Origin: Patescibacteria group bacterium
GTDB taxonomy: Bacteria > Patescibacteriota > JACPGU01
NCBI GenBank assembly: GCA_022703645.1
Contig: JAKLDG010000001.1
Coordinates: 274,814 to 338,813 of the forward strand
Length of the DNA: 64,000 nucleotides
Reading direction: 5' to 3'
Positions 1 through 20,687 of the stretch are shown here, one piece after another. The first letter of the stretch is position 1, and each line of letters opens with the position of its first letter. The notes under the pieces are model-generated. The model was not told the DNA's origin. It saw nothing but the letters and a program-made list of their open reading frames with translations, and did no database searches. The position numbers and the translations under genes are program-made.

Positions 1-1033
1 TGTCCAGTTTATTCATAAATCCAAGTGAATGTGACGAGAATATTAATTGAGCCTTTTTATTTTTATCTTCATCAATAAAATAACCAATAAGTTTATTTAA
101 AGCTTCCGGATGAAAACCAGTTTCAAGCTCGTCAATAATAACAACATTATTATTTTTCAATGCACTTAGGATATTTGCCATTACAAAGAATAATGATTTA
201 GTGCCTCTCGATTCATATCCAAAATCCAGTTTGTTATTTTCTGTTTTAGTAGAGTGAACGCCTTGTACGGTTATAGAGAATCCCTTTTCTCTGACATCTT
301 CTTTGATTTCAAAACTATTTAACCCAATATCAAAATGGCGAATAAAATTTTCTACTTCTTTTTTTAGTTCAGAATCACTTAAATAAACCTTAAGTGCATC
401 AATTTGATGCATAACATGATTTATTTCGCCTCTTTCATTAATGTTGGTTTTAAATCCTAAGAAATAATCATAAACACTGTTTATGATATCAACGCTATAA
501 GTAGATTTCTTTATAAAGGCTATAAAAGAAACATCCTCTCTTATTTTTGGAAGAGCACTTATAGAAATATTCTTAAAATAATTTTCATTTAACGAATCTA
601 TAGTGCTTAATTGGCGCGAGAATATTTTTATTTTTTTTGAACCCGCTTGGATTGCTTTTATGTATAGGGATTCTTTTGTGATAATGTCTTTTTTTATTGA
701 GAAGTCATAAAAAAACACATTATTATTATGCTCGAATTCAACATAAAAATTTGATAACTTATCATTACCAAAAAAGGTTTTGAAGGCAATGCCTGGCATA
801 AGAGGGAATTCATCATTTATATTTCTGCATACAAAAAACTTTAGAAAACTAAAGAATCTCATGACATTTGTTTTACCCGATGCATTGCCACCAATAAAAC
901 CAGCAATCTTTGTTATTTGGTCGTCAGTCTTCGACTGATAATAGTCGTAAGTTTTTTTCTTTTTCGCTAGAAAACTAATTTCTTGCTCCTTGTTGAAGGA
1001 ATAAAAATTACTAAACTTTACCTTTCTTATCAT
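1..1033 (-). CDS. AAA-family ATPase (AAA_15/AAA_21-like), 3' end beyond window
   Basis: Minus-strand translation from ATG at 1031-1033 gives MIRKVKFSNFYSF...IGGNASGKTN (Walker A GxNxSGKT), later ...VIIDELETGFHPEA (Walker B-like DE plus HP). The reading frame stays open to the window edge. Confidence 0.5.
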   Translation of the reverse strand, partial: MIRKVKFSNFYSFNKEQEISFLAKKKKTYDYYQSKTDDQITKIAGFIGGNASGKTNVMRFFSFLKFFVCRNINDEFPLMPGIAFKTFFGNDKLSNFYVEFEHNNNVFFYDFSIKKDIITKESLYIKAIQAGSKKIKIFSRQLSTIDSLNENYFKNISISALPKIREDVSFIAFIKKSTYSVDIINSVYDYFLGFKTNINERGEINHVMHQIDALKVYLSDSELKKEVENFIRHFDIGLNSFEIKEDVREKGFSITVQGVHSTKTENNKLDFGYESRGTKSLFFVMANILSALKNNNVVIIDELETGFHPEALNKLIGYFIDEDKNKKAQLIFSSHSLGFMNKLD

Positions 1034-1119
1034 ATTTTTTGAGTTATTATTATTTCTCTAGCTAAGTATATCAGTGATTAAATAATAAGTCAAGTTAATA
1101 CAAAATATTGTATTAAGTC

Positions 1120-1480
1120 CTTAGATAGTCATTCATCTCACGGCTTTGCCGTGCCCCCTCTATAATATAAAAAATCAAATTCGTTTTCCCCTATATAAAA
1201 AAGCCTATCAATATTCCTTATTATAAGAAAAATATTTATTGAATTGCGTATAATGTCTCAGTATATCTGATGTTTCGCTCGATACCAAATTAGTTGAAAA
1301 TAGAAGAGCAGAAATATGGACGAACCCCGAGCCGAGGGGTGAGTCAGATATACTGTGTTAGGCGAGGGATTGATTTACTTACATTATTGAATATATATAA
1401 AAAGTAATCAAGAGCGCAGCGCCCCCTTGAGTTTCAAAAAACAAACTTCTCCTTTATTTAAGAGCTCTTTTGGGATTTTT
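1120..1480 (+). repeat. Modular island repeat, copy A (h1 hairpin 1126-1165; three-way-junction core 1250-1362; reversed AAGAGCTCTT module 1414-1480)
   Basis: Core has stem cagtatatctg/cagatatactg, CTGATGT junction, variable hairpin, AATATGG, a GAGCGA-like box and a GTGTTA tail. It is one of 10 copies. Confidence 0.85.
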
Positions 1481-1572
1481 ATTTTAATTGTTAAACAAGG
1501 ATTAATTTTACAGTTAATGTCAAATATGATAAAATGTGGAAAGAAAAAAAGAAAGGAGCGTGACCTTAACAA

Positions 1573-1958
1573 TGGATAATATGACAGCAGTTGTCTGGGC
1601 AAACAGAACGGAGAGAAGAATCTCCCAAAAAGACCTTCAGAAGATAATAAAGGATCATCTTCGCGAACTTGCGGATATGTATAACAAGTTCACGGACGCC
1701 AGTGATTTCACAAATAATGGCATGGATGTTATAGCCAAAGAAATCAGCGAACGCTTAAAAACCCTCATCGTAACAGGTGGCAACCAGATGGTGTCGGTTT
1801 CGGCGAGCGAAGATGATGTTTCAATAGCGCTCATAGAAATGAGCAAAGAAGGATTCTTCGAGGGCGGGCCGACCGGGTTTTTGGTGGTTGATGTGAAGGG
1901 AAGCCTTACGGAGTTCAAGCTGAAGACGGGAGTCAGAACGAAAACTCGATACGAATAA
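1573..1958 (+). CDS. Hypothetical protein (cassette 1; ~50% GC)
   Basis: ORF 1536..1958. An ATG at 1573 follows the RBS-like gaaaggagcg. GC is clearly higher than the flanks. It is followed by a terminator hairpin and T-run at about 1995-2025. Confidence 0.5.
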
Positions 1959-2017
1959 GTTTTCACACGCAATTCATTACACACAATGTCGAAGCTGGCC
2001 GCTGAGGTCGGCTTTTT

Positions 2018-2215
2018 TTCTTTCCCAAAAATCCCAAAAGAGCTCTAATTAAAATATAAAAAAGTTTGTTTTTGAAATTTCGCCTAATGTTTCGGTATAT
2101 CTGATGTCTAGGCTCGCTACCCAATTAAGTTGATGTAGGAAGAGCATAGATATGGGCGCAGGTTTGCGACTTAGCGAACCGTAGCCAGATATACCGTGTT
2201 ATGTGACGTCATGAA
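2018..2215 (+). repeat. Modular island repeat, copy B (forward AAGAGCTCT module 2018-2085; core 2085-2205)
   Basis: Core stem cggtatatctg/cagatataccg, CTGATGT, hairpin, GATATGG, GTGTTA. Confidence 0.85.
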
Positions 2216-2246
2216 AAATTCTTAATTCGACGATTTTAGTCGAATT

Positions 2247-2273
2247 TTAATCAGGGCAGATTTATTTTTTTAT
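2247..2273. repeat. Left 27-bp terminal inverted repeat flanking the cassette-2 methyltransferase gene
   Basis: ttaatcagggcagatttatttttttat is the exact reverse complement of 3058-3084. Confidence 0.9.
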
Positions 2274-3034
2274 TTCTTGGTTATTATGATTAAGTCGTCC
2301 TTAAAATCTAAGTAATTATTCCTTTGATGTTTTATGATGTTGGCTAAAAACTTCTTTACTTCTGTTGCAGTTGGGAGGGTGTTAGTGTTATGTATAAACC
2401 TATAGTAGTTCTTCAAATCAAAGTTTATTTTCCCGCTCAATATATCGCCCACATACATTCGCATTTTGTAGCGCTTTGTTTTTACAGAAAAGCCCTGTTT
2501 TTTATAAAAATCCGAAATATATTCCGAATAATTAAACTTTGGATACACTTGTTTTATAGCAATGTTATAGTGGTCACTTTCTTCAGGTAAGGTTAATATC
2601 AAAAGCTTACCTTTTTTCTTCAACAAGTCAGTCAGTTTTAACAACTGCTCTTGATAACTCTTTTCATCGGATGCCCAGTAATAATTCGTGTGAGAGGTAA
2701 AAATATAATCATATTTTTCATCGGTTTTTAGTTTGGATAGGGGTGCAGTGAATAGCTTTCCTATATTATTCTCGGGCGATAAAAATGTTTTCGCGTACGA
2801 CAGAGCTTTTTTGTTCGGTTCCAATAGATCGCATGAATAATCATACTCCAATCTGTCTAATATCTGTTTTGTAGTATGACCTTCGCCACATCCAATATCT
2901 AAAATCTTTCCACCTTTTATCTCTTTAACTATACCAAATACAATACCGAACCAGTCTTCGGTTAAGGCTCTGATATATATATTCTCATATACTTCTGCGA
3001 ATTGTTTTTCTCCCCAAAAATCCCATTTTGTCAT
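2270..3034 (-). CDS. Class I SAM-dependent methyltransferase (cassette 2)
   Basis: 254 aa with motif I ILDIGCGEGHTT. It is bounded by perfect 27-bp inverted repeats. Confidence 0.65.
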   Translation of the reverse strand: MTKWDFWGEKQFAEVYENIYIRALTEDWFGIVFGIVKEIKGGKILDIGCGEGHTTKQILDRLEYDYSCDLLEPNKKALSYAKTFLSPENNIGKLFTAPLSKLKTDEKYDYIFTSHTNYYWASDEKSYQEQLLKLTDLLKKKGKLLILTLPEESDHYNIAIKQVYPKFNYSEYISDFYKKQGFSVKTKRYKMRMYVGDILSGKINFDLKNYYRFIHNTNTLPTATEVKKFLANIIKHQRNNYLDFKDDLIIITKK

Positions 3035-3057
3035 AAATATATGTATTTTATTATATC

Positions 3058-3084
3058 ATAAAAAAATAAATCTGCCCTGATTAA
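3058..3084. repeat. Right 27-bp terminal inverted repeat (partner of 2247-2273)
   Basis: ataaaaaaataaatctgccctgattaa. Confidence 0.9.
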
Positions 3085-3109
3085 TTTTGCGTGAGCTACG
3101 CAAAAAAGA

Positions 3110-3441
3110 ATTTTTTATTATGTCACATAATGTCTCCGAGTATCTGATGTCTTTGATTTCCTTCAATATTACATTAAATATAAAAGGAAAGCAAAGATAT
3201 GGGTTGAGCGACGGCAGGAGCGAACCAGATACTCGGTGTTGGGCGACCCGAACGAGCTATTCACTTTATTAAATGTAAAAAGCGAGTGAGAGTGCAACGC
3301 GGTGCAAACGTCCATTTTCTTTTTCCTTTATTTATTGCTGGCTGTAACCACTCATAGTATTAGTAATTATAAGAAAATTTTGCTTCTCCATTTTTGGGCG
3401 AGGTCAGAGGGGATTCAGGGGTGAATGACCGAAGCCCAAAA
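3110..3441 (+). repeat. Modular island repeat, copy C (core 3125-3245; tail module; GGGG-loop hairpin 3392-3441)
   Basis: Core stem ccgagtatctg/cagatactcgg, a compensatory variant of copy A. The 3' module is ttttgggcgaggtcagaggggattcaggggtgaatgaccgaagcccaaaa. Confidence 0.85.
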
Positions 3442-3533
3442 TCATAAATGTTTTCAAAAAAATGTTATTTAAGGTATAATATTTGTTGAACAATAAGTTG
3501 TACCCTAAAAAACGAAAAAAGGAGGTGGTGGTT

Positions 3534-11549: not shown

Positions 11550-12527
11550 TTATTTCAAATCAGCCATTATTTTTTTTGCTAAATGGTGGGCAAAATTTAC
11601 TGCGACAGCATTTCCAATCATTTTATATCCGTCGGCAATATCACGATATTTAAAAATAAAATTATCAGGGAATGTTTGAATCCTTGCACATTCACGAACA
11701 GACAAGCGACGATATAAATGTTCTTTTCCGGGAACAAAAATTCTTTTATTTTGACTGATAAATTTCATTTTCGGAGCTTGGGGATGAATTGGAGCATGGC
11801 GACCACCGGCTTGAATGGTAAAAGAAGGTTCATCCCATGAGCGAACACGATTTCGCGACATATAAATTGAAGAAAAACCGCCATTCATGTATTCGTGATT
11901 TGGAATTTTTAACACATCGCCATTTGTCTTATTTTTATCTAACGCAGGTTTTGCTAAACGCAAATCATAAATAGCGTCTTTCAATACTGGTTTATATTTT
12001 TGCGGTTCTGGAAATTCAAATTTTTTCTTTAGTTTTTTATTATATCCAACAATAATGACACGCAATCTATCTTCAGGAACATCATAATCATTTGCATTTA
12101 ATAATTTGCAGGAAATTTCATATCCAGCATTTTCAAATTCTTTTATTATATTTGAAAAAGCCTCTTTGTGTTTAGGGTGAAGAATACCCGATACATTTTC
12201 TGCAAGAAAAAATTTTGGTTGTTTTTCCTTTAATAAACGAATGTAATCATAAAATAATTTTCCTCTTTTATCATTTATTCCACGTCCAGCCCCAGCCTCG
12301 CTCCAACTTTGACAAGGTGGTCCGCCAATGATTCCGTCAACATCGGGAATTTCAGAAGCAGGGACGTCGACAATACTTCTTTTATCAAGTTTTGTTTTTG
12401 GAAAATTGTGTTCAAAAGTTTCCCAAATTGTGGGGTCATATTCATTTGCCCAGACGACATGAAAACCAGCTTTTTCAAAGCCTAAATCAAGTCCTCCTGC
12501 ACCTGTAAACAATGAAGCTATTTTCAT
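11550..12527 (-). CDS. DNA (cytosine-5)-methyltransferase
   Basis: Motif I FTGAGGLDLGF, motif IV GGPPCQSWS, ENV. Confidence 0.9.
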   Translation of the reverse strand: MKIASLFTGAGGLDLGFEKAGFHVVWANEYDPTIWETFEHNFPKTKLDKRSIVDVPASEIPDVDGIIGGPPCQSWSEAGAGRGINDKRGKLFYDYIRLLKEKQPKFFLAENVSGILHPKHKEAFSNIIKEFENAGYEISCKLLNANDYDVPEDRLRVIIVGYNKKLKKKFEFPEPQKYKPVLKDAIYDLRLAKPALDKNKTNGDVLKIPNHEYMNGGFSSIYMSRNRVRSWDEPSFTIQAGGRHAPIHPQAPKMKFISQNKRIFVPGKEHLYRRLSVRECARIQTFPDNFIFKYRDIADGYKMIGNAVAVNFAHHLAKKIMADLK

Positions 12528-12529
12528 AA

Positions 12530-13534
12530 TTATTCGTGACTAATATTTAGTGTGTTTTTAAATAATTTTTTCGGCGATTTCAAAAGATTTATATCAAATT
12601 TCAAAGACGATTCAACCCTAGAACTTGCATTATGAATACGAAAAGAAAGAGTCCAATCATTATTCATGGTTACTATTGCCGTTGTTTGGCTATCGGTTTT
12701 GAAACAAATATCAACAATTTCTGTTGGCAATGGAACTTTTGGTGTTTTGTATTTTGGAAGAATGTCGTTAAAAGGCAAATTTAATGTTCCATTCAAATTG
12801 TATGCGTGTATTTCTACACTATTTTTGCCTTTAATAACTTTGTAAAAATCTTTATTTCCAACGAGGTATGCAACTAGATTAGACGCTACTTTTTTAGAAT
12901 CTTTTTTGTATAGATTTTTCAGTTCTTTAATAAAGGCTTTTAAAATTGGAATATAGATTGATGAATGATAATCACCAAGCTCACTCCACTTTTTCTTTGC
13001 ACCGCTTTCTTTTCTAATTTTCTCTAAATTGTTAAAAATAGGTGTTACTGTTTCAAAATATTCTTTTGATGTTTTTATTCCAAGCCACTTTTCACCAAAA
13101 TCAATATTTGAAGATAGTCGGGAATGCTTTACTGCATGATGATTGTTTTTGGCCGATACTCCAATTTCCCATTTTTGCAACAAACGAATTGCTAAAACAT
13201 CTCTAACATCGCCTGATTTTCCATGTTGATCGGATAAAATTTCAAGTTGCAGAATATCATCTTTACCAACATCATTTGTGAGGCGTGGCTCTATATCCAT
13301 TAGAAAATTAACCGCAAAACTAGCGGTGAGTAAATAATCACTTTTTTCTGTTTCGCTCACATTTTCAAAACATCCTTTTGCAATTTCAAAAGAAGAATTT
13401 TTGATAACTTCAAGATTTGTTTTATCTTTCAATTTTTCTTCAAATTGAACAAGTAAAGCATATTCAAAAGATTTTCCAGTTGTCATTTGTCTTGATGCAG
13501 TAGTAGTCATATTTTTATTATTACATTTTTCCAT
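12530..13534 (-). CDS. Putative cognate Type II restriction endonuclease
   Basis: 334-aa ORF directly upstream of and co-oriented with the C5-methyltransferase gene. I recognise no motif, so the call rests on context only. Confidence 0.35.
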   Translation of the reverse strand: MEKCNNKNMTTTASRQMTTGKSFEYALLVQFEEKLKDKTNLEVIKNSSFEIAKGCFENVSETEKSDYLLTASFAVNFLMDIEPRLTNDVGKDDILQLEILSDQHGKSGDVRDVLAIRLLQKWEIGVSAKNNHHAVKHSRLSSNIDFGEKWLGIKTSKEYFETVTPIFNNLEKIRKESGAKKKWSELGDYHSSIYIPILKAFIKELKNLYKKDSKKVASNLVAYLVGNKDFYKVIKGKNSVEIHAYNLNGTLNLPFNDILPKYKTPKVPLPTEIVDICFKTDSQTTAIVTMNNDWTLSFRIHNASSRVESSLKFDINLLKSPKKLFKNTLNISHE

Positions 13535-13662
13535 TTAAAAATAAATCGTTTTCGTAGCGGAGCGGAGAAAACACCTTATACCCCTTTCTAATTAATAAAA
13601 AACAAAATTTAAATTCTTTTTTAGAGCTGGGCGATAGCCCAAAAGTAAAACATGCATTTCAC

Positions 13663-13709
13663 ATAACTCGTTTTTATCTGAATATATTTCAGATAAAAAC
13701 GAGTTACGG
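13663..13709. promoter_or_regulatory. Perfect 19-bp-arm palindrome in the divergent region between the REase and recombinase genes
   Basis: taactcgtttttatctgaa-tatat-ttcagataaaaacgagtta. It contains the ATCTGA/TCAGAT boxes also present in the repeat cores. Confidence 0.5.
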
Positions 13710-13783
13710 TAGTTTATGCGGTTATTGTGTACATTCTTCAACATCTTTGATATTATCGATTTAATATTATCATTTTTTATTAT

Positions 13784-14605
13784 ATGCAACAATACTTAGA
13801 TAGATTGTCGCAGGAATTACGATTAAGAAATTATAGTAACAGCACGGTCGAAAGTTACCTGACGTGCGTGAAATATTATTTTTATTTTGTGGAAAGAAAT
13901 GGCGCAAGAATTGAAGATGGTGATCAGGATATTCTCAAATCATTTCTTCTTGATAAACATAACAAAGGGTCCTCATCACAAACGATCAATCTTTATCTCA
14001 ATGCGATAAAGTTTTTTTATCGGGAAATCATGAAATCACCACAAAGTATCGATATTAGATTTGCCAAGAAATCAAATAAGCTGCCGGTAGTCCTCTCGCA
14101 TGATGAGATTGAAAGAATTATTGAAGTAACAAAAAATTCAAAGCATCGGCTCATTATTTCGCTGAGCTATGGCGCAGGGTTGAGAGTGAGCGAAATCATA
14201 AGTTTAAAAGTTAAAGACTTGGATTTGGATAGCTTAACGATTCACCTAAAAAATGCGAAGGGGAAAAAGGACAGAATTACGGTTTTGCCGGTAAAATTAG
14301 TTAATTCTTTGCGCAATGCGGTTGCGGGCAAGGATATTGATGATCTGGTTTTTGAAAGCGAGAGAGGCGGGGGATTGACCGATCGGACTGCACAGGTCAT
14401 TTTCAACAATGGGTTGAGGAGAGCGGGAATCAAAAAAGAAGCGACATTCCACTCGCTTCGCCATTCGTTCGCTACACATCTGCTTGAAAACGGTACAGAC
14501 ATTCGTTACATTCAAGAATTGCTTGGACATCAAAATATTCGAACGACTCAAATTTATACAAAAGTGACAAACCCGGCGGTACGCAATATAAAAAGCCCGC
14601 TGTAA
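13784..14605 (+). CDS. Tyrosine site-specific recombinase (XerC/D-like phage-integrase family)
   Basis: AGLRVSE (catalytic Arg), HSLRHSFATHLL (H-x-x-R), LGHQNIRTTQIYTKV (nucleophilic Tyr). At 273 aa it is shorter than classical IntI. Confidence 0.85.
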   Translation: MQQYLDRLSQELRLRNYSNSTVESYLTCVKYYFYFVERNGARIEDGDQDILKSFLLDKHNKGSSSQTINLYLNAIKFFYREIMKSPQSIDIRFAKKSNKLPVVLSHDEIERIIEVTKNSKHRLIISLSYGAGLRVSEIISLKVKDLDLDSLTIHLKNAKGKKDRITVLPVKLVNSLRNAVAGKDIDDLVFESERGGGLTDRTAQVIFNNGLRRAGIKKEATFHSLRHSFATHLLENGTDIRYIQELLGHQNIRTTQIYTKVTNPAVRNIKSPL

Positions 14606-14624
14606 ATTTCATTTATCTTATAAA

Positions 14625-15152
14625 ATGCAAAACGAAAATAAAAATAGAAAATCAATCCGTTTAAAAGAATATGATTATTCTGAACCAGGAGATTATTTTG
14701 TTACAATTTGCACACAGAATCGAGAATGTTTGTTTGGGGAGATTGTAGACGGTAAGATGATTTTAAATGAAATGGGATTAATAGTTAATGATTGTTGGAA
14801 TGATTTAGAAAATCATTACCCGGGAATTTATTTGGATATATTTACAATCATGCCGAACCATATTCATTTTATATTAACAATATTGTGCGATGATCATATT
14901 GTAGGGGCGGGTTTGAAACCCGCCCCTACGGGGAAGCGATATCAATTGTTCGAGATAATTCGTGGGTTCAAAACATTCTCTGCAAGAAAAATAAATAAAA
15001 TGAAAAATACATCTGGTAATCCTGTTTGGCAACGCAACTATTACGAACACATCGTTCGCAACGAACAATCTTACGATGAAATTTATTCTTACATAGAGTC
15101 TAATTCTCAAACCTGGGATCGGGATAGGAATAATCCAAAAAATATGATATAA
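14625..15152 (+). CDS. IS200/IS605-family HUH transposase-like protein (RAYT/TnpA-REP-like)
   Basis: 175 aa with an HUH motif in IMPNHIHFIL. It contains an in-frame REP-like palindrome at 14901-14929. Confidence 0.65.
   Translation: MQNENKNRKSIRLKEYDYSEPGDYFVTICTQNRECLFGEIVDGKMILNEMGLIVNDCWNDLENHYPGIYLDIFTIMPNHIHFILTILCDDHIVGAGLKPAPTGKRYQLFEIIRGFKTFSARKINKMKNTSGNPVWQRNYYEHIVRNEQSYDEIYSYIESNSQTWDRDRNNPKNMI
14901..14929. repeat. REP-like palindrome GTAGGGGCGGGTTTGAAACCCGCCCCTAC inside the transposase ORF
   Basis: Perfect 13-bp arms. The same GTAGGGGCG head occurs at three operon-end hairpins. Confidence 0.7.
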
Positions 15153-16482: not shown

Positions 16483-16511
16483 TTGACATAATATTTATTG
16501 TGTGATAAAAT
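16483..16511 (+). promoter_or_regulatory. Sigma70-like promoter (TTGACA-17-TAAAAT) upstream of the rSAM operon leader
   Basis: ttgacataatatttattgtgtgataaaat. Confidence 0.55.
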
Positions 16512-16645
16512 GTGCGAAAGTGAATAAAGTCACTGTATCAACAATAAAAAATATGTCAGAAAACCTAATTCTGCAAAACCAGTTTTTCTGCCAAGAGGAA
16601 AAATTTTCTCTCATGATTTTATCACTTAAAAATAAGGTAAGTTAG

Positions 16646-16679
16646 CATCGGCGTCTACAAGCGCCGATTTTTTTTAATT
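16646..16679 (+). terminator. Intrinsic terminator-like hairpin in the rSAM operon leader (possible attenuator)
   Basis: gcatcggcg-tctacaa-gcgccgat followed by a T-run, 55 nt upstream of the rSAM start. Confidence 0.5.
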
Positions 16680-16735: not shown

Positions 16736-18094
16736 ATGAATTCAATAGGCGCTATCAGTGTACCTTCGAAGATTGAGGGAATTTATCAGGATGACGTAAA
16801 TGGTTTTTTATTGGTTTGCAACCCTCTTGATATGAACGGTATCCATGTTCTTGATAATCGAACAACAAAAATTTTTAACCTTTGTTGCGGATTGAAGTCA
16901 ATTGCTGAAATATCGTTTCAATGTGAAGAAGATATCAATTATACAAGCGCTGTGGTAAATGCGCTGTATGAAAAGGGAATTATTAGGATAGGTGATACAT
17001 CTATCGCATCATTTTCAAAAAAACATTTAAAAAAACAACTCGATTCTTGGTTTCATATAACGAACAATTGTAATTTAGCATGTAAATATTGTTACATTAA
17101 TAGGACTAATGAATCGATGAGTTTTGAGACCGCAAAAAAGGCGATTGATAGTTTGATCGCTAGCGCTGTATTATATGGAAAAACTTCGATTCGAGTAAAA
17201 TTTGCAGGAGGTGAGCCGCTTCTTGAGTTCCCCTTGATCAAAAGGATTGTTTCTTACGCGCGTTGGGCAGGAGATACGAAGGGTGTTGATTTCATCTTTA
17301 ATATTATTACAAATGGTACTCTTATATCGAAAGATATCTCAGAATATATTAAATCTGAGGAAATGTCAGTTTCTGTTTCGTTGGATGGCATTGGGGAATA
17401 CCATAACTGTCAAAGAGGCGGTTTTTCAAGAGTTGAAAGGGGCATAACAGTGTTGCAAGATAATGAGGTTATTCCAAGTATTTTGGTGACAGTTTCGGAG
17501 TTAAGTCTAATGGGGTTACCTGCGCTGACAGAATACCTCTTGGATAGAGGACTACCCTTCCGATTTAGTTTATTTAGGGAGCTGGAGGTTCGAAATGATA
17601 GCCCCATCAAAAGCGATGACAATTTTAACCATAGAGTCATAACAACGCTTCATCAATGTTACGACATTATCGAAACCATGCTTCCTAAAAAAGAACTACC
17701 GCAATTTCATAAACTTTGTGATATCGATATTACAAGAAAAAGGATGCGGAACTGCGGGATTGGTAGTAATGGAGTAGTTGTTGGGCATAATGGGCAAATA
17801 GCTATTTGCCAAGCTCTGTTGGATCATCCAGTTGGAACGGTCTTTAGCGGTGACCCTTTAACACTCGTAAGAAACCAGAGCGAATATAAAATAGGCTCAT
17901 ATTCGGTTGATAAAAACACGGAATGCAATTCTTGCATATGGAGGTATGTCTGTACGGGTGGTTGTCCGCTACTCACTACATTAAAAAATGGTAGCTTTAG
18001 TGCAAGATCACCTTTTTGTGAAGTGTTTAAAGAAATGATTCCAAGGCTGTTACGTATTCACGGGCTTCAGATAATTAACAAAAATTCCAAATGA
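16736..18094 (+). CDS. Radical SAM/SPASM-domain peptide-modifying enzyme
   Basis: CNLACKYCY (CxxxCxxC), a C-terminal Cys-rich SPASM-like region (CNSCIWRYVCTGGCP...CEVF), an ~90-aa N-terminal extension that may be an RRE, and a strong RBS aaaggagg. Confidence 0.8.
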   Translation: MNSIGAISVPSKIEGIYQDDVNGFLLVCNPLDMNGIHVLDNRTTKIFNLCCGLKSIAEISFQCEEDINYTSAVVNALYEKGIIRIGDTSIASFSKKHLKKQLDSWFHITNNCNLACKYCYINRTNESMSFETAKKAIDSLIASAVLYGKTSIRVKFAGGEPLLEFPLIKRIVSYARWAGDTKGVDFIFNIITNGTLISKDISEYIKSEEMSVSVSLDGIGEYHNCQRGGFSRVERGITVLQDNEVIPSILVTVSELSLMGLPALTEYLLDRGLPFRFSLFRELEVRNDSPIKSDDNFNHRVITTLHQCYDIIETMLPKKELPQFHKLCDIDITRKRMRNCGIGSNGVVVGHNGQIAICQALLDHPVGTVFSGDPLTLVRNQSEYKIGSYSVDKNTECNSCIWRYVCTGGCPLLTTLKNGSFSARSPFCEVFKEMIPRLLRIHGLQIINKNSK

Positions 18095-18110
18095 AAGGAG
18101 GTGAATCGTT

Positions 18111-18230
18111 ATGGCAGCAGAACTCGGGATTTTTTCAAGTAGCTCAAATGCAGGGATGACCACTCAGTGTCTCGATGAGTGTACATCCCCCGTAGATTGC
18201 GATTGCGACTGCACTGACGCCGACGACTAA
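18111..18230 (+). CDS. Candidate RiPP precursor peptide (39 aa; not in the ORF track)
   Basis: MAAELGIFSSSSNAGMTTQCLDECTSPVDCDCDCTDADD. RBS ggaggtg 9 nt upstream. It starts 17 nt after the rSAM stop. A terminator follows at 18265-18296. Confidence 0.5.
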   Translation: MAAELGIFSSSSNAGMTTQCLDECTSPVDCDCDCTDADD

Positions 18231-18264
18231 GAAAAACCGGGCGAATATTTCAGAAATTCAAATA

Positions 18265-18296
18265 AAAACCCTATTTGTTCGCAAATAGGGTTTTTT
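18265..18296 (+). terminator. Intrinsic terminator after the precursor peptide
   Basis: aaaaccctatttgttcgcaaatagggtttttt. Confidence 0.7.
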
Positions 18297-18332
18297 ATTG
18301 TATAATAGACAGTAACAATAAATAATAAATTT

Positions 18333-19046
18333 ATGAAACCAAAAATATCTTTTAAATATTCGTTAGAAAAAGACGCAGAAAACTGGATTTATAAAATTAT
18401 TGGTACTGAAAAAGGGTTTATATCAGTAGAAGATACTCATTCGTACTATACGGAAAATATTCTTGAAGGATTAAAAAAAGCCAAAGATAAAAAAGAAGCT
18501 TTGGCGTTTATGATTCAAAAAATTAAATCACCAAAAAATTCTGAAATAAAATTTTTAGCAATTCATGAAAATATTAAAACATTAGAAAAAATTTGGAAGA
18601 CAATTCAAGGCGACTATTTTGATATTTTGAGTAAAATACTAAAAGCACCACTTTATCGCGGTGGTTTTATATCTTATTTATCAACTTTTACATTATGTCG
18701 TTCCAATGTCGAAGAAGGTTATTTCTATATTAGTACTTGGGGCAATATCTCTAGTCAAATTAATATAATTTTTCATGAAATGCATCATATGCAATTTCTA
18801 TCAGTCTATCGCAAGACTCTTGAGGAATCAGGTTTGTCTGAAAATCAGATTCAAAACCTTAAAGAAGCTTTAACATTTCAGCTCAATGAAAAAGATTTTC
18901 AAGCAATAACTCTTTTACCCGATCGTGGTTACCCGCAACATAAAGATTTTCGAAAAAAATTAAAAAAGATTTGGGATAAAGAAGGTGATTTTAAATTATT
19001 CTTGCCTAAGGCCATAGAACTAACAAAGAAAATAATTAAGAAATAA
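18333..19046 (+). CDS. Hypothetical protein with a HEXXH motif (possible zinc peptidase)
   Basis: 237 aa. The only motif seen is IFHEMHHMQF. Confidence 0.4.
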   Translation: MKPKISFKYSLEKDAENWIYKIIGTEKGFISVEDTHSYYTENILEGLKKAKDKKEALAFMIQKIKSPKNSEIKFLAIHENIKTLEKIWKTIQGDYFDILSKILKAPLYRGGFISYLSTFTLCRSNVEEGYFYISTWGNISSQINIIFHEMHHMQFLSVYRKTLEESGLSENQIQNLKEALTFQLNEKDFQAITLLPDRGYPQHKDFRKKLKKIWDKEGDFKLFLPKAIELTKKIIKK

Positions 19047-19049
19047 ACA

Positions 19050-19085
19050 AGATTTATAAAGAACCACTAGTTACACTAGTGGTTC
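19050..19085. terminator. Bidirectional terminator between convergent genes
   Basis: aaagaaccactagttacactagtggttctttt. Confidence 0.7.
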
Positions 19086-19092
19086 TTTTATA

Positions 19093-19797
19093 TTATATTG
19101 ATTCTTTCTCTTTCATTTTCAACTTTCTCTTTATCCCAACCCCGATTTCTTTTCCAACTTCTTTATACATTTTCCCTCTATGTTTAAGTCCTTTTTCAAT
19201 TCCCATTTTTTGCTCTTTCATGAGGTGCCCTACTCCGGGAAGGAAAACCTTCATTGATTTCGCGCCTTTTTTCTTAAAATGATTTTTCAGAGCGATTTCA
19301 ACTCCAAACCGGCTATTTTTTATATTGGCGTCTTCGATTAGATACTTCCAGAAAGCCTGTTGTCCGGAGAGATTTGAACCCGTAACTTGAATGAAAGTCA
19401 TCCACCATCTTTTTTTATGCGCGATTATTCCGATACACACATCCGATTGTTTTTCGATTATTGGCATAAGAAGTTTCTCGATGTGGGGTTTTTCGATTCC
19501 AACCAGATCCGCATCTAACATTACAATAATATCTCCAGTTGCATGCTGTAAACCATGCCAGACAGCCCCTCCTTTTCCGACATTGTGTTCCAAGTCAACA
19601 AAAATAATACCTTTCTCATTCCGAAGGATTTCGTAAGTTCCATCTATTGAGCCATCATTAACCACAATTATCTCGTGAAAAATATCACTTTCCTTGGCCG
19701 AATTGATCACTTGTTTGATGGTTAACTCTTCATTGTATGCAGGAATTATGCAGGAAATTCTTTCCATTTGATTTTCATTATATATTAAAAGACTCAA
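19093..19797 (-). CDS. Family 2 glycosyltransferase (dolichyl/polyprenyl-phosphate sugar transferase-like)
   Basis: CIIPAYNEE...VVNDGSIDGT...MLDADL (DxD). Confidence 0.75.
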   Translation of the reverse strand: MSLLIYNENQMERISCIIPAYNEELTIKQVINSAKESDIFHEIIVVNDGSIDGTYEILRNEKGIIFVDLEHNVGKGGAVWHGLQHATGDIIVMLDADLVGIEKPHIEKLLMPIIEKQSDVCIGIIAHKKRWWMTFIQVTGSNLSGQQAFWKYLIEDANIKNSRFGVEIALKNHFKKKGAKSMKVFLPGVGHLMKEQKMGIEKGLKHRGKMYKEVGKEIGVGIKRKLKMKEKESI

Positions 19798-20228: not shown

Positions 20229-20687
20229 TTATTGATGCGTTTTTATATACTCTCTCCAATTTTTTCTGATCCATCTTTTCTGAAACTTCAGAATATCTCC
20301 AAATCCGCGGTCTTTCAGCTCTTGATCAATGATGCCACCAGCATGGGGATTGCGGAAACTTTTTGGTCGCATGGAATTAAATCCATGAACAAAATGGCAA
20401 AATTCATGAGCCAGAATTCCTTCCACGACTGTTTCTGGAATATCTTCACGCGCGAAATAACCGTTGATTGTAATAATACTAACCACTTCATCGGCGTTTA
20501 AAAACTTCATTTTGCGCCGGTCTAGCTGCATACGTTTATTCGCTTTTTCGCGAATAGCAATAGAGCCCAGACGGGTACGATTCGCTCGTCCGAACTTTAC
20601 CTCGATCTCATTACCATCGATAATATCCGAAAAATATGTCTGATGGATGAAAATTAATTTTTCAGTTAACCATGTGTTGTCTCTCAC
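20229..20687 (-). CDS. SprT-like zinc metallopeptidase domain protein
   Basis: HEFCHFVHG is a HEXXH motif in a ~150-aa protein. Confidence 0.5.
   Translation of the reverse strand: MRDNTWLTEKLIFIHQTYFSDIIDGNEIEVKFGRANRTRLGSIAIREKANKRMQLDRRKMKFLNADEVVSIITINGYFAREDIPETVVEGILAHEFCHFVHGFNSMRPKSFRNPHAGGIIDQELKDRGFGDILKFQKRWIRKNWREYIKTHQ

Follow-up and report, generated by a model that had tools for sequence, protein, structure and literature searches.

The closest described relatives of the system reported here are three pairs of radical S-adenosylmethionine (rSAM)/SPASM enzyme and substrate: PapB and PapA (freyrasin) from Paenibacillus polymyxa, CteB and its SCIFF peptide (thermocellin; PDB 5wgg), and QhpD and QhpC. 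In all three systems, Asp, Glu or Thr is the acceptor of a non-α thioether (PMC9413430). With PapB in particular, the Cys sulfur becomes bonded to Cβ of Asp or Cγ of Glu; the enzyme accepts CXnD spacings with n = 0 to 6, but it did not process a transposed D...C motif (PMC9413430). In the current study, we examined a 64,000-nucleotide stretch of a low-GC Patescibacteria genome (assembly GCA_022703645.1, contig JAKLDG010000001.1, positions 274,814 to 338,813; hereafter the window) in which an rSAM/SPASM enzyme, a 39-aa Cys- and acid-rich peptide and a HExxH protein are encoded side by side. We consider it fairly likely that these form a minimal three-gene cassette of Patescibacteria for a peptide that is synthesized by ribosomes and modified post-translationally (RiPP), which would be ranthipeptide-like, would carry Cys-Asp/Glu thioethers and would be served by a dedicated HExxH partner. 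Judged by its sequences, the cassette functions in the same manner as the thioether systems of PapB, SCIFF and QhpD, yet it does not qualify as a member of any of them.

Each element named in the original prediction was found in its place on the forward strand. The rSAM/SPASM peptide maturase (452 aa; 16736..18094) ends in a TGA stop codon at 18092-18094 and is followed by a Shine-Dalgarno sequence, GGAGGTG (18097..18103; read from the sequence), which lies 7 nt 5′ of the ATG (18111) of the precursor peptide gene (39 aa; 18111..18230; MAAELGIFSSSSNAGMTTQCLDECTSPVDCDCDCTDADD). An intrinsic terminator with a 14-bp stem, a 4-nt loop and a T-run (18264..18295) marks the end of the maturase-precursor operon. 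The gene for the HExxH metalloenzyme, a cytoplasmic, zincin-like protein of 237 aa, occupies 18333..19046, and a further terminator (19058..19088, 14-bp stem) lies 3′ of it.

The window peptide can be divided into a putative leader (approximately residues 1-19), carrying a conserved hydrophobic G-I-F strand motif, and a core (residues 20-39, QCLDECTSPVDCDCDCTDADD) with 5 Cys and 8 Asp/Glu among its 20 residues. It is the only Cys/acid-rich small open reading frame (ORF) in the window. When 163 loci encoding relatives of the rSAM enzyme were sampled, a small ORF was found directly 3′ of the orthologous rSAM gene in 24 of them (the window plus 23 others). Most of these belong to Patescibacteria, with Uhrbacteria, Azambacteria, Saccharimonas/Saccharibacteria, unclassified Patescibacteria and two metagenome-assembled genomes (MAGs) of Clostridia among the named hosts. 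The ORFs often overlap the rSAM stop codon or start at most 40 nt from it. They have the AGGAGGTG site in common with the window, as seen ahead of the small ORF in L001, L002 and L003, and hairpins similar to the window terminator also occur 3′ of the peptide gene in L002 and L003. Substitutions between orthologues are skewed to third codon positions (18/27, 21/39, 28/42 and 22/39), and in a neighbor-joining tree of 136 enzymes all 24 peptide-linked rSAMs fall inside one clade of 32. By these comparative measures, the 39-aa ORF at 18111-18230 is a real gene.

Alignment of the family (A4) resolved an N-terminal hydrophobic strand, [LFY]-G-[IV]-[IFLV], then a spacer and a C-terminal core, as in the peptides of L003 (MDTEKSFGIIFGRFKSESSSAQCTGECSQCADCNCVDCTDDDD), L004 (MKIGAKYGVVSGFTGESSIVAQCSECSPVEDCDCHCTDDDD), L089 (MFIVDDNTLHTEVASDCGQECCSDCDCNCTVDGDCWDE) and L150 (MEKMRKLEELGIFASSSNQLENSMECNECNECIEECECDCYECLPECIGF), the last having a leader nearly identical to that of the window peptide. 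That the precursor belongs to an undescribed family, as originally predicted, is borne out, with none of 21 family peptides matching any NCBIfam model at E ≤ 10; the window peptide has no Pfam match either. The description of the peptide as unannotated holds only in part, because the JGI and ENA pipelines already call the exact peptide as a gene. It is nameless there, and in that sense the description stands.

One orthologous precursor (L002:2833-2961) contains an in-frame TGA. At this exact position the codon specifies Cys in L001 and L003 (TGT) and Pro in the window. Beyond the TGA the frame runs on as ADCDCVDCSDDD up to its stop codon, and the adjoining rSAM gene also stops with TGA. The TGA may reflect a nonsense variant or an error of assembly, or it may encode selenocysteine. 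As regards the last of these, the downstream hairpin (z = -1.4) does not support a selenocysteine insertion sequence (SECIS) element.

The order of residues in the family cores is not random. The cores contain 26% Cys and 31% Asp plus Glu (Asp, 23%), and 87 of their 122 Cys directly follow D or E, compared with 38 ± 4.5 in shuffled cores; none of 5,000 shuffles reached 87. If Q and N are counted as well, 111/122 Cys are so preceded. Looking downstream instead, 111/122 have D/E among the next five residues, that is, inside the CXnD range that PapB tolerates, and all five Cys of the window core have an acidic residue 0 to 4 positions downstream (C-Xn-D, n = 0-4). The cores therefore carry an ordered [D/E]-C motif. 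Since PapB, QhpD and CteB form non-α thioethers, PapB accepts C-Xn-D with n = 0-6 and the window Cys fit this spacing, Cys-Asp/Glu thioethers are the products that we would expect. The pairing rule, however, may differ from that of PapA, because the acid mostly precedes Cys here and PapB did not process the transposed order.

The maturase itself is clearly a radical SAM/SPASM protein. Pfam Radical_SAM matches it above the cut-off (E 1.5e-11), and it contains both the CX3CX2C cluster motif (C112, C116 and C119; 17069..17092) and the full 7-Cys SPASM pattern (CX9-15GX4C...CX2CX5CX3C...C). The latter reads C340-X12-G353-X4-C358...C397-X2-C400-X5-C406-X3-C410...C428 (17753..18019), and in an alignment of 14 close relatives (A1; 37-48% identity) the three Cys of the cluster motif, G353 and all 7 SPASM Cys never vary. 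Some relatives of the enzyme carry a precomputed Pfam SPASM annotation. In NCBIfam, the best matches of the enzyme are with few exceptions rSAM/SPASM maturases that modify peptides, and the list is headed by PapB (NF047865; 150.9 bits, E 4.9e-44, against a cut-off of 340 bits). Behind PapB come the nif11-type maturase model (137 bits, under its cut-off), the SCIFF maturase model TIGR03974 (122.6 bits versus 425), QhpD (TIGR03906; 114.8 bits versus 453, the fourth-best curated family) and CcpM (111 bits, under its cut-off). The anaerobic sulfatase-maturing enzyme (anSME) model TIGR03942 reached 93.7 bits versus 349, and the sactipeptide maturase models scored lower still (RumMC, 87 bits; StsB, 69 bits). 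Because every NCBIfam score is far under its curated cut-off, we place the enzyme in no named family. Among solved structures, the closest by sequence is CteB (5wgg; E 1e-43), with anSME second (E 1e-33). The sub-cut-off matches led by PapB, together with CteB as closest solved relative, uphold the proposal that the enzyme is a peptide maturase. A grouping with anSME, an unrelated conserved partner and a small ORF that is not conserved had been named beforehand as the pattern that would speak against the proposal; we find the ORF conserved in syntenic loci, no anSME grouping and no conserved partner of an unrelated kind.

Each known system resembles the window cassette in some respects and departs from it in others. 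PapB and PapA share with it an rSAM/SPASM maturase of the best-scoring family and a leader-dependent, Cys-/Asp-rich precursor, but PapA has six C-X3-D units where the core here has [D/E]-C and CxC, and the HExxH partner and the Patescibacteria hosts set the window cassette apart. CteB gives a fold match over the full length, the N-terminal domain considered below included, and its substrate SCIFF is likewise a small Cys-rich precursor; in that system, however, Cys is linked to the γ-carbon of Thr, the cores are not acid rich, and the window precursor matches neither SCIFF nor any other NCBIfam precursor model. QhpD, like the reaction envisaged here, forms Cys-Asp/Glu thioethers, but no qhp operon surrounds the window gene, and the window substrate is a free, leader-bearing peptide of 39 aa.

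A RiPP recognition element (RRE) is a PqqD-like, leader-binding winged helix built from three helices and three β-strands. The original prediction had placed such an element in the N-terminal extension of the maturase. In an AlphaFold2 (AF2) model of the enzyme (mean predicted local distance difference test [pLDDT] score, 82), this region (approximately residues 10-85; 16763..16990) is modeled at a pLDDT of ~90, with strands at 10-12, 17-21, 24-28 and 36-39 followed by helices at 41-49, 56-62 and 67-79. The best fold matches of the model in Foldseek are TigE and CteB, over the full length including the N-terminal domain (~460 aligned columns, versus ~378 for anSME, which lacks an RRE), and the hidden Markov model alignment with CteB begins at CteB residue 21, within the N-terminal region of that protein. 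The domain is thus probably an RRE and presumably the leader-binding element, as judged from the model and the CteB alignment. The predicted topology is compatible with the earlier claim, but Pfam calls no PqqD here; when the N-terminal 100 aa were scanned by themselves for PqqD/RRE, the matches were at chance level only.

By tblastn, a homologue of the 237-aa HExxH protein adjoins the rSAM gene in 17 of 22 scanned loci (window counted), co-directional or convergent with it, and a Cys/Asp-rich peptide is encoded in every one of the 17. In two further loci (L016 and L019), its place is taken by a HELIH protein that is more divergent and ~200 aa long. All-against-all clustering of the ORFs of the 22 loci returned the rSAM and HExxH proteins as the only conserved components. 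The association was also seen in the reverse direction: a distant HExxH member (P0123, L164) lies beside an rSAM gene and a 59-aa Cys/Asp/Ser-rich peptide, and another (P0138, L166) lies directly 3′ of a 65-aa peptide of GCD-type repeats. The latter peptide (L166:190-387; MTAGIVSLVDGVCVLSSCDEDSCDGYGCDSCETGCDVGCDQACDNGCDLGCDNGCDYGGQGDPNP), encoded on a short contig, consists of ~ten x-G-C-D units.

The HExxH protein has the features of a gluzincin of clan MA(E), with the HExxH motif on an active-site helix, a Glu ligand on the next helix and a preceding β-sheet. Residues H148, E149, H152, E178 and Y200 are invariant in 18 sequences, and H203 is nearly so. The HEMHH motif spans residues 148-152 (18774-18788), and E178, the putative third ligand (18864-18866), lies 26 residues after it. 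In the AF2 model (pLDDT 90.8), strands at 111-117 and 130-134 precede the HExxH helix (139-165) and the E178 helix (170-185), and residues 11-103 form an extra N-terminal helical region. The protein belongs to no Pfam or NCBIfam family, and the number of homologues recovered rose from 3 in a word-indexed search to 22 in a profile search and 1,536 in an exhaustive search. M1 aminopeptidases are multi-domain enzymes of ~600-900 aa with a GxMEN exopeptidase motif. The window protein, unlike the M1 gluzincin leader peptidases AplP and EryP, is a stand-alone single domain of 237 aa with no GxMEN and no Pfam Peptidase_M1 match. It also differs from the M50 protease EpeP, which is membrane bound, and from the HExxH proteases YydH and LiaK; it has no significant Foldseek match. 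We would give a role as leader peptidase a slightly better than even chance, and a role as tailoring oxygenase seems unlikely.

What we observe directly is the set of genes, how far they are conserved and found together, the architecture of their domains, the Cys that bind the clusters and the ordered [D/E]-C motif; from these we infer the cross-link chemistry, the peptidase role and export. In the pathway that we propose, the 39-aa precursor would bind the RRE-like domain through its leader strand, [LFY]-G-[IV]-[IFLV]. The rSAM enzyme, using a 5′-deoxyadenosyl radical and two auxiliary Fe-S clusters, would then join the five core Cys to neighboring Asp/Glu side chains. The likeliest products would be non-α (β- or γ-carbon) thioethers, as formed by PapB, QhpD and CteB, each link costing 2 Da, for a total of up to 10 Da. 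The cytoplasmic HExxH...E zincin-type partner would subsequently act on the modified peptide, and its most likely task would be to cleave off the leader.

Several points weigh against this pathway. The enzyme is under every family cut-off, so that the cross-link may be of more than one type (Cα, Cβ, Cγ or some other reaction), and the core motif is [D/E]-C rather than the C-X3-D of PapA. Pfam detected neither SPASM nor PqqD/RRE in the window rSAM protein. The 22 loci hold no conserved transporter, immunity gene or other tailoring gene, and a Foldseek search of the HExxH model against the PDB gave no significant solved match.

The alternative that survives best keeps the same cassette and makes the HExxH protein an Fe(II)/α-ketoglutarate (αKG)-dependent oxygenase, which would β-hydroxylate Asp (or other) residues of the core or cleave the backbone oxidatively. 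HExxH proteins in RiPP clusters can indeed be Fe/αKG hydroxylases; their fold is zincin-like, they often occur next to rSAM/SPASM enzymes or fused with them, and the residues that they hydroxylate are Asp, His, Gln and Pro (PMC12636437, PMC13060819). Almost a quarter of the residues in the cores considered here are Asp. However, we found no sequence link to the β-hydroxylases ChlH, BpmH, PflC and PesO (IPR026337): the NCBIfam models for HExxH hydroxylases match none of the 18 members tried at E ≤ 10, and a search of PDB sequences with the HExxH profile returned nothing significant and did not recover 8s5f at E ≤ 10. Hydrolytic gluzincins also score higher structurally than the αKG-HExxH hydroxylases, the invariant HExxH, Glu and Tyr are a hydrolytic gluzincin signature, and the geometry of a Glu third ligand suits a hydrolase. 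Moreover, a step requiring O2 and αKG would presumably be ill suited to Patescibacteria, which are mostly anaerobic fermenters, and to a place beside an O2-sensitive rSAM enzyme. We regard the oxygenase as a possible but doubtful partner.

Less probable in our estimation is that the maturase makes a different modification, such as sactionines (Cys sulfur to Cα), Cys oxidation or carbon-carbon links, or that the product is mainly a Cys/Asp metal-binding peptide. Such an outcome would agree with an enzyme that is under all family cut-offs and whose architecture is like that of both CteB-type and sactipeptide maturases, with CxC and DCxC spacings that resemble metal-binding motifs and with a [D/E]-C order that reverses that of PapA (PMC9413430). 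Yet the nearest curated families, PapB, SCIFF and QhpD, make non-α thioethers (PMC9413430), RumMC and StsB score below PapB, and acceptor-type residues are strictly interleaved with Cys. Finally, it is very improbable that the locus is not a RiPP system at all, in which case the small ORF would be incidental and the enzyme, like anSME, would mature a cofactor or a protein. In favor of this view, anSME is the second-best solved relative, and in some clade members no small peptide follows the rSAM gene (L117, for example, has a 576-aa Cys-rich secreted protein in that place). Against it, the small ORF is conserved along with the rSAM clade and its substitutions are those of a coding sequence, anSME lacks the extra N-terminal RRE-like domain, the match of the enzyme to the anSME model is far below the cut-off, and no sulfatase or other protein partner is conserved.

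A broader and frankly speculative suggestion, which we think improbable, is that the HExxH proteins (~230 aa; ~1,500 clusters at 50% identity) are an unrecognized family dedicated to Cys/Asp-rich rSAM-modified peptides, perhaps going beyond mere leader removal, in redox-metal tailoring of Asp or in coupled cleavage-cyclization. The [D/E]-C cross-linked peptides would then be a new structural class, such as Asp-Cys thioethers that are vicinal or reversed in order, or a scaffold that binds metal, and genome-reduced, episymbiotic Patescibacteria would employ them in host interaction or metal acquisition.

Related loci offered several further observations. In a sister rSAM clade, another type of precursor is encoded upstream of the enzyme, with an LKNAKVIT-like leader and repeated DCAC/ECDC units (e.g., the stretch GDCACQENGDCACEAMCDCACEAYGDCACAQVY). 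These precursors lie at L013:354-548, L014:2831-2989, L015:2306-2455, L018:241-411, L024:2526-2669, L025:532-699, L088:2847-2999 and L133:2589-2741; a tblastn search of these loci revealed no HExxH partner, and the precursors match no NCBIfam model. L001 carries, 540 nt upstream of its main cassette, a unit (1033-3462) made up of a second, divergent rSAM gene (1288-2634) and a 245-aa HEMMH family member (2725-3462). A 65-aa ORF upstream (1033-1230) contains CICTCVHC and may be the precursor of the second rSAM. L003, L004 and L006 also carry a second rSAM gene. In L117:3001-6098 (Clostridium sp. CAG:762), the clade rSAM is followed by the 576-aa protein mentioned above, which has a signal peptide, and by no small peptide, an arrangement suggesting that for some members of the clade the substrate may be a large secreted protein.

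In the window, the cassette has obg, a GT2 glycosyltransferase gene and rpoB as neighbors. Upstream of the rSAM gene is a promoter-like site close to the consensus (TTGACA-17-TAAAAT plus an extended TG, 11/12; 16483-16511), and a strong terminator (16647-16668) lies ~135 nt 3′ of it, between obg and the rSAM gene. The two (16483-16668) could represent a small transcript or simply the 3′ end of obg. A riboswitch or leader RNA 5′ of the rSAM gene found no support, there being no Rfam match at threshold and folding being no better than that of shuffled sequences. Just upstream of obg and the cassette is a run of mobile/defense-type genes (11550-15152). The first two encode a C-5 cytosine methylase (11550-12527) and a restriction endonuclease of the HaeIII type (12530-13534); genes for a tyrosine recombinase (13784-14605) and for a protein related to IS200-like Y1 transposases (14625-15152) come next. 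The GT2 glycosyltransferase gene (19093-19797) lies 3′ of the cassette. Adjoining it, two genes downstream of the cassette on the reverse strand, is a gene for a 152-aa protein (20229-20687) with a HEFCH motif and a weak SprT-like match (E 0.003); this gene does not accompany the cassette in the other loci.

The genomes of Patescibacteria are tiny, and biosynthetic gene clusters are usually reported as scarce in them or missing; one survey detected no such cluster in the Patescibacteria MAGs that it covered (PMC11613949). Our literature searches on this system in the Candidate Phyla Radiation (CPR)/Patescibacteria returned only generic surveys of such clusters and no description in the searchable literature. 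What is unusual here is the prevalence of the cassette in genome-reduced Patescibacteria and its uncharacterized partner; to the RiPP specialist, it is a genome-mining lead more than a surprise. A precursor family with a [D/E]-C motif, outside all curated models searched, is now defined, and it provides a natural set of substrates with which to ask how PapB- and CteB-like enzymes pick their acceptors when the acid precedes Cys. The HExxH family, with its ~1,500 clusters, is likewise uncharacterized, and its role as peptidase or oxygenase is testable in E. coli. For the organisms themselves, so compact and so widely shared an rSAM-peptide-HExxH cassette would mean that Patescibacteria keep a dedicated modified-peptide pathway.

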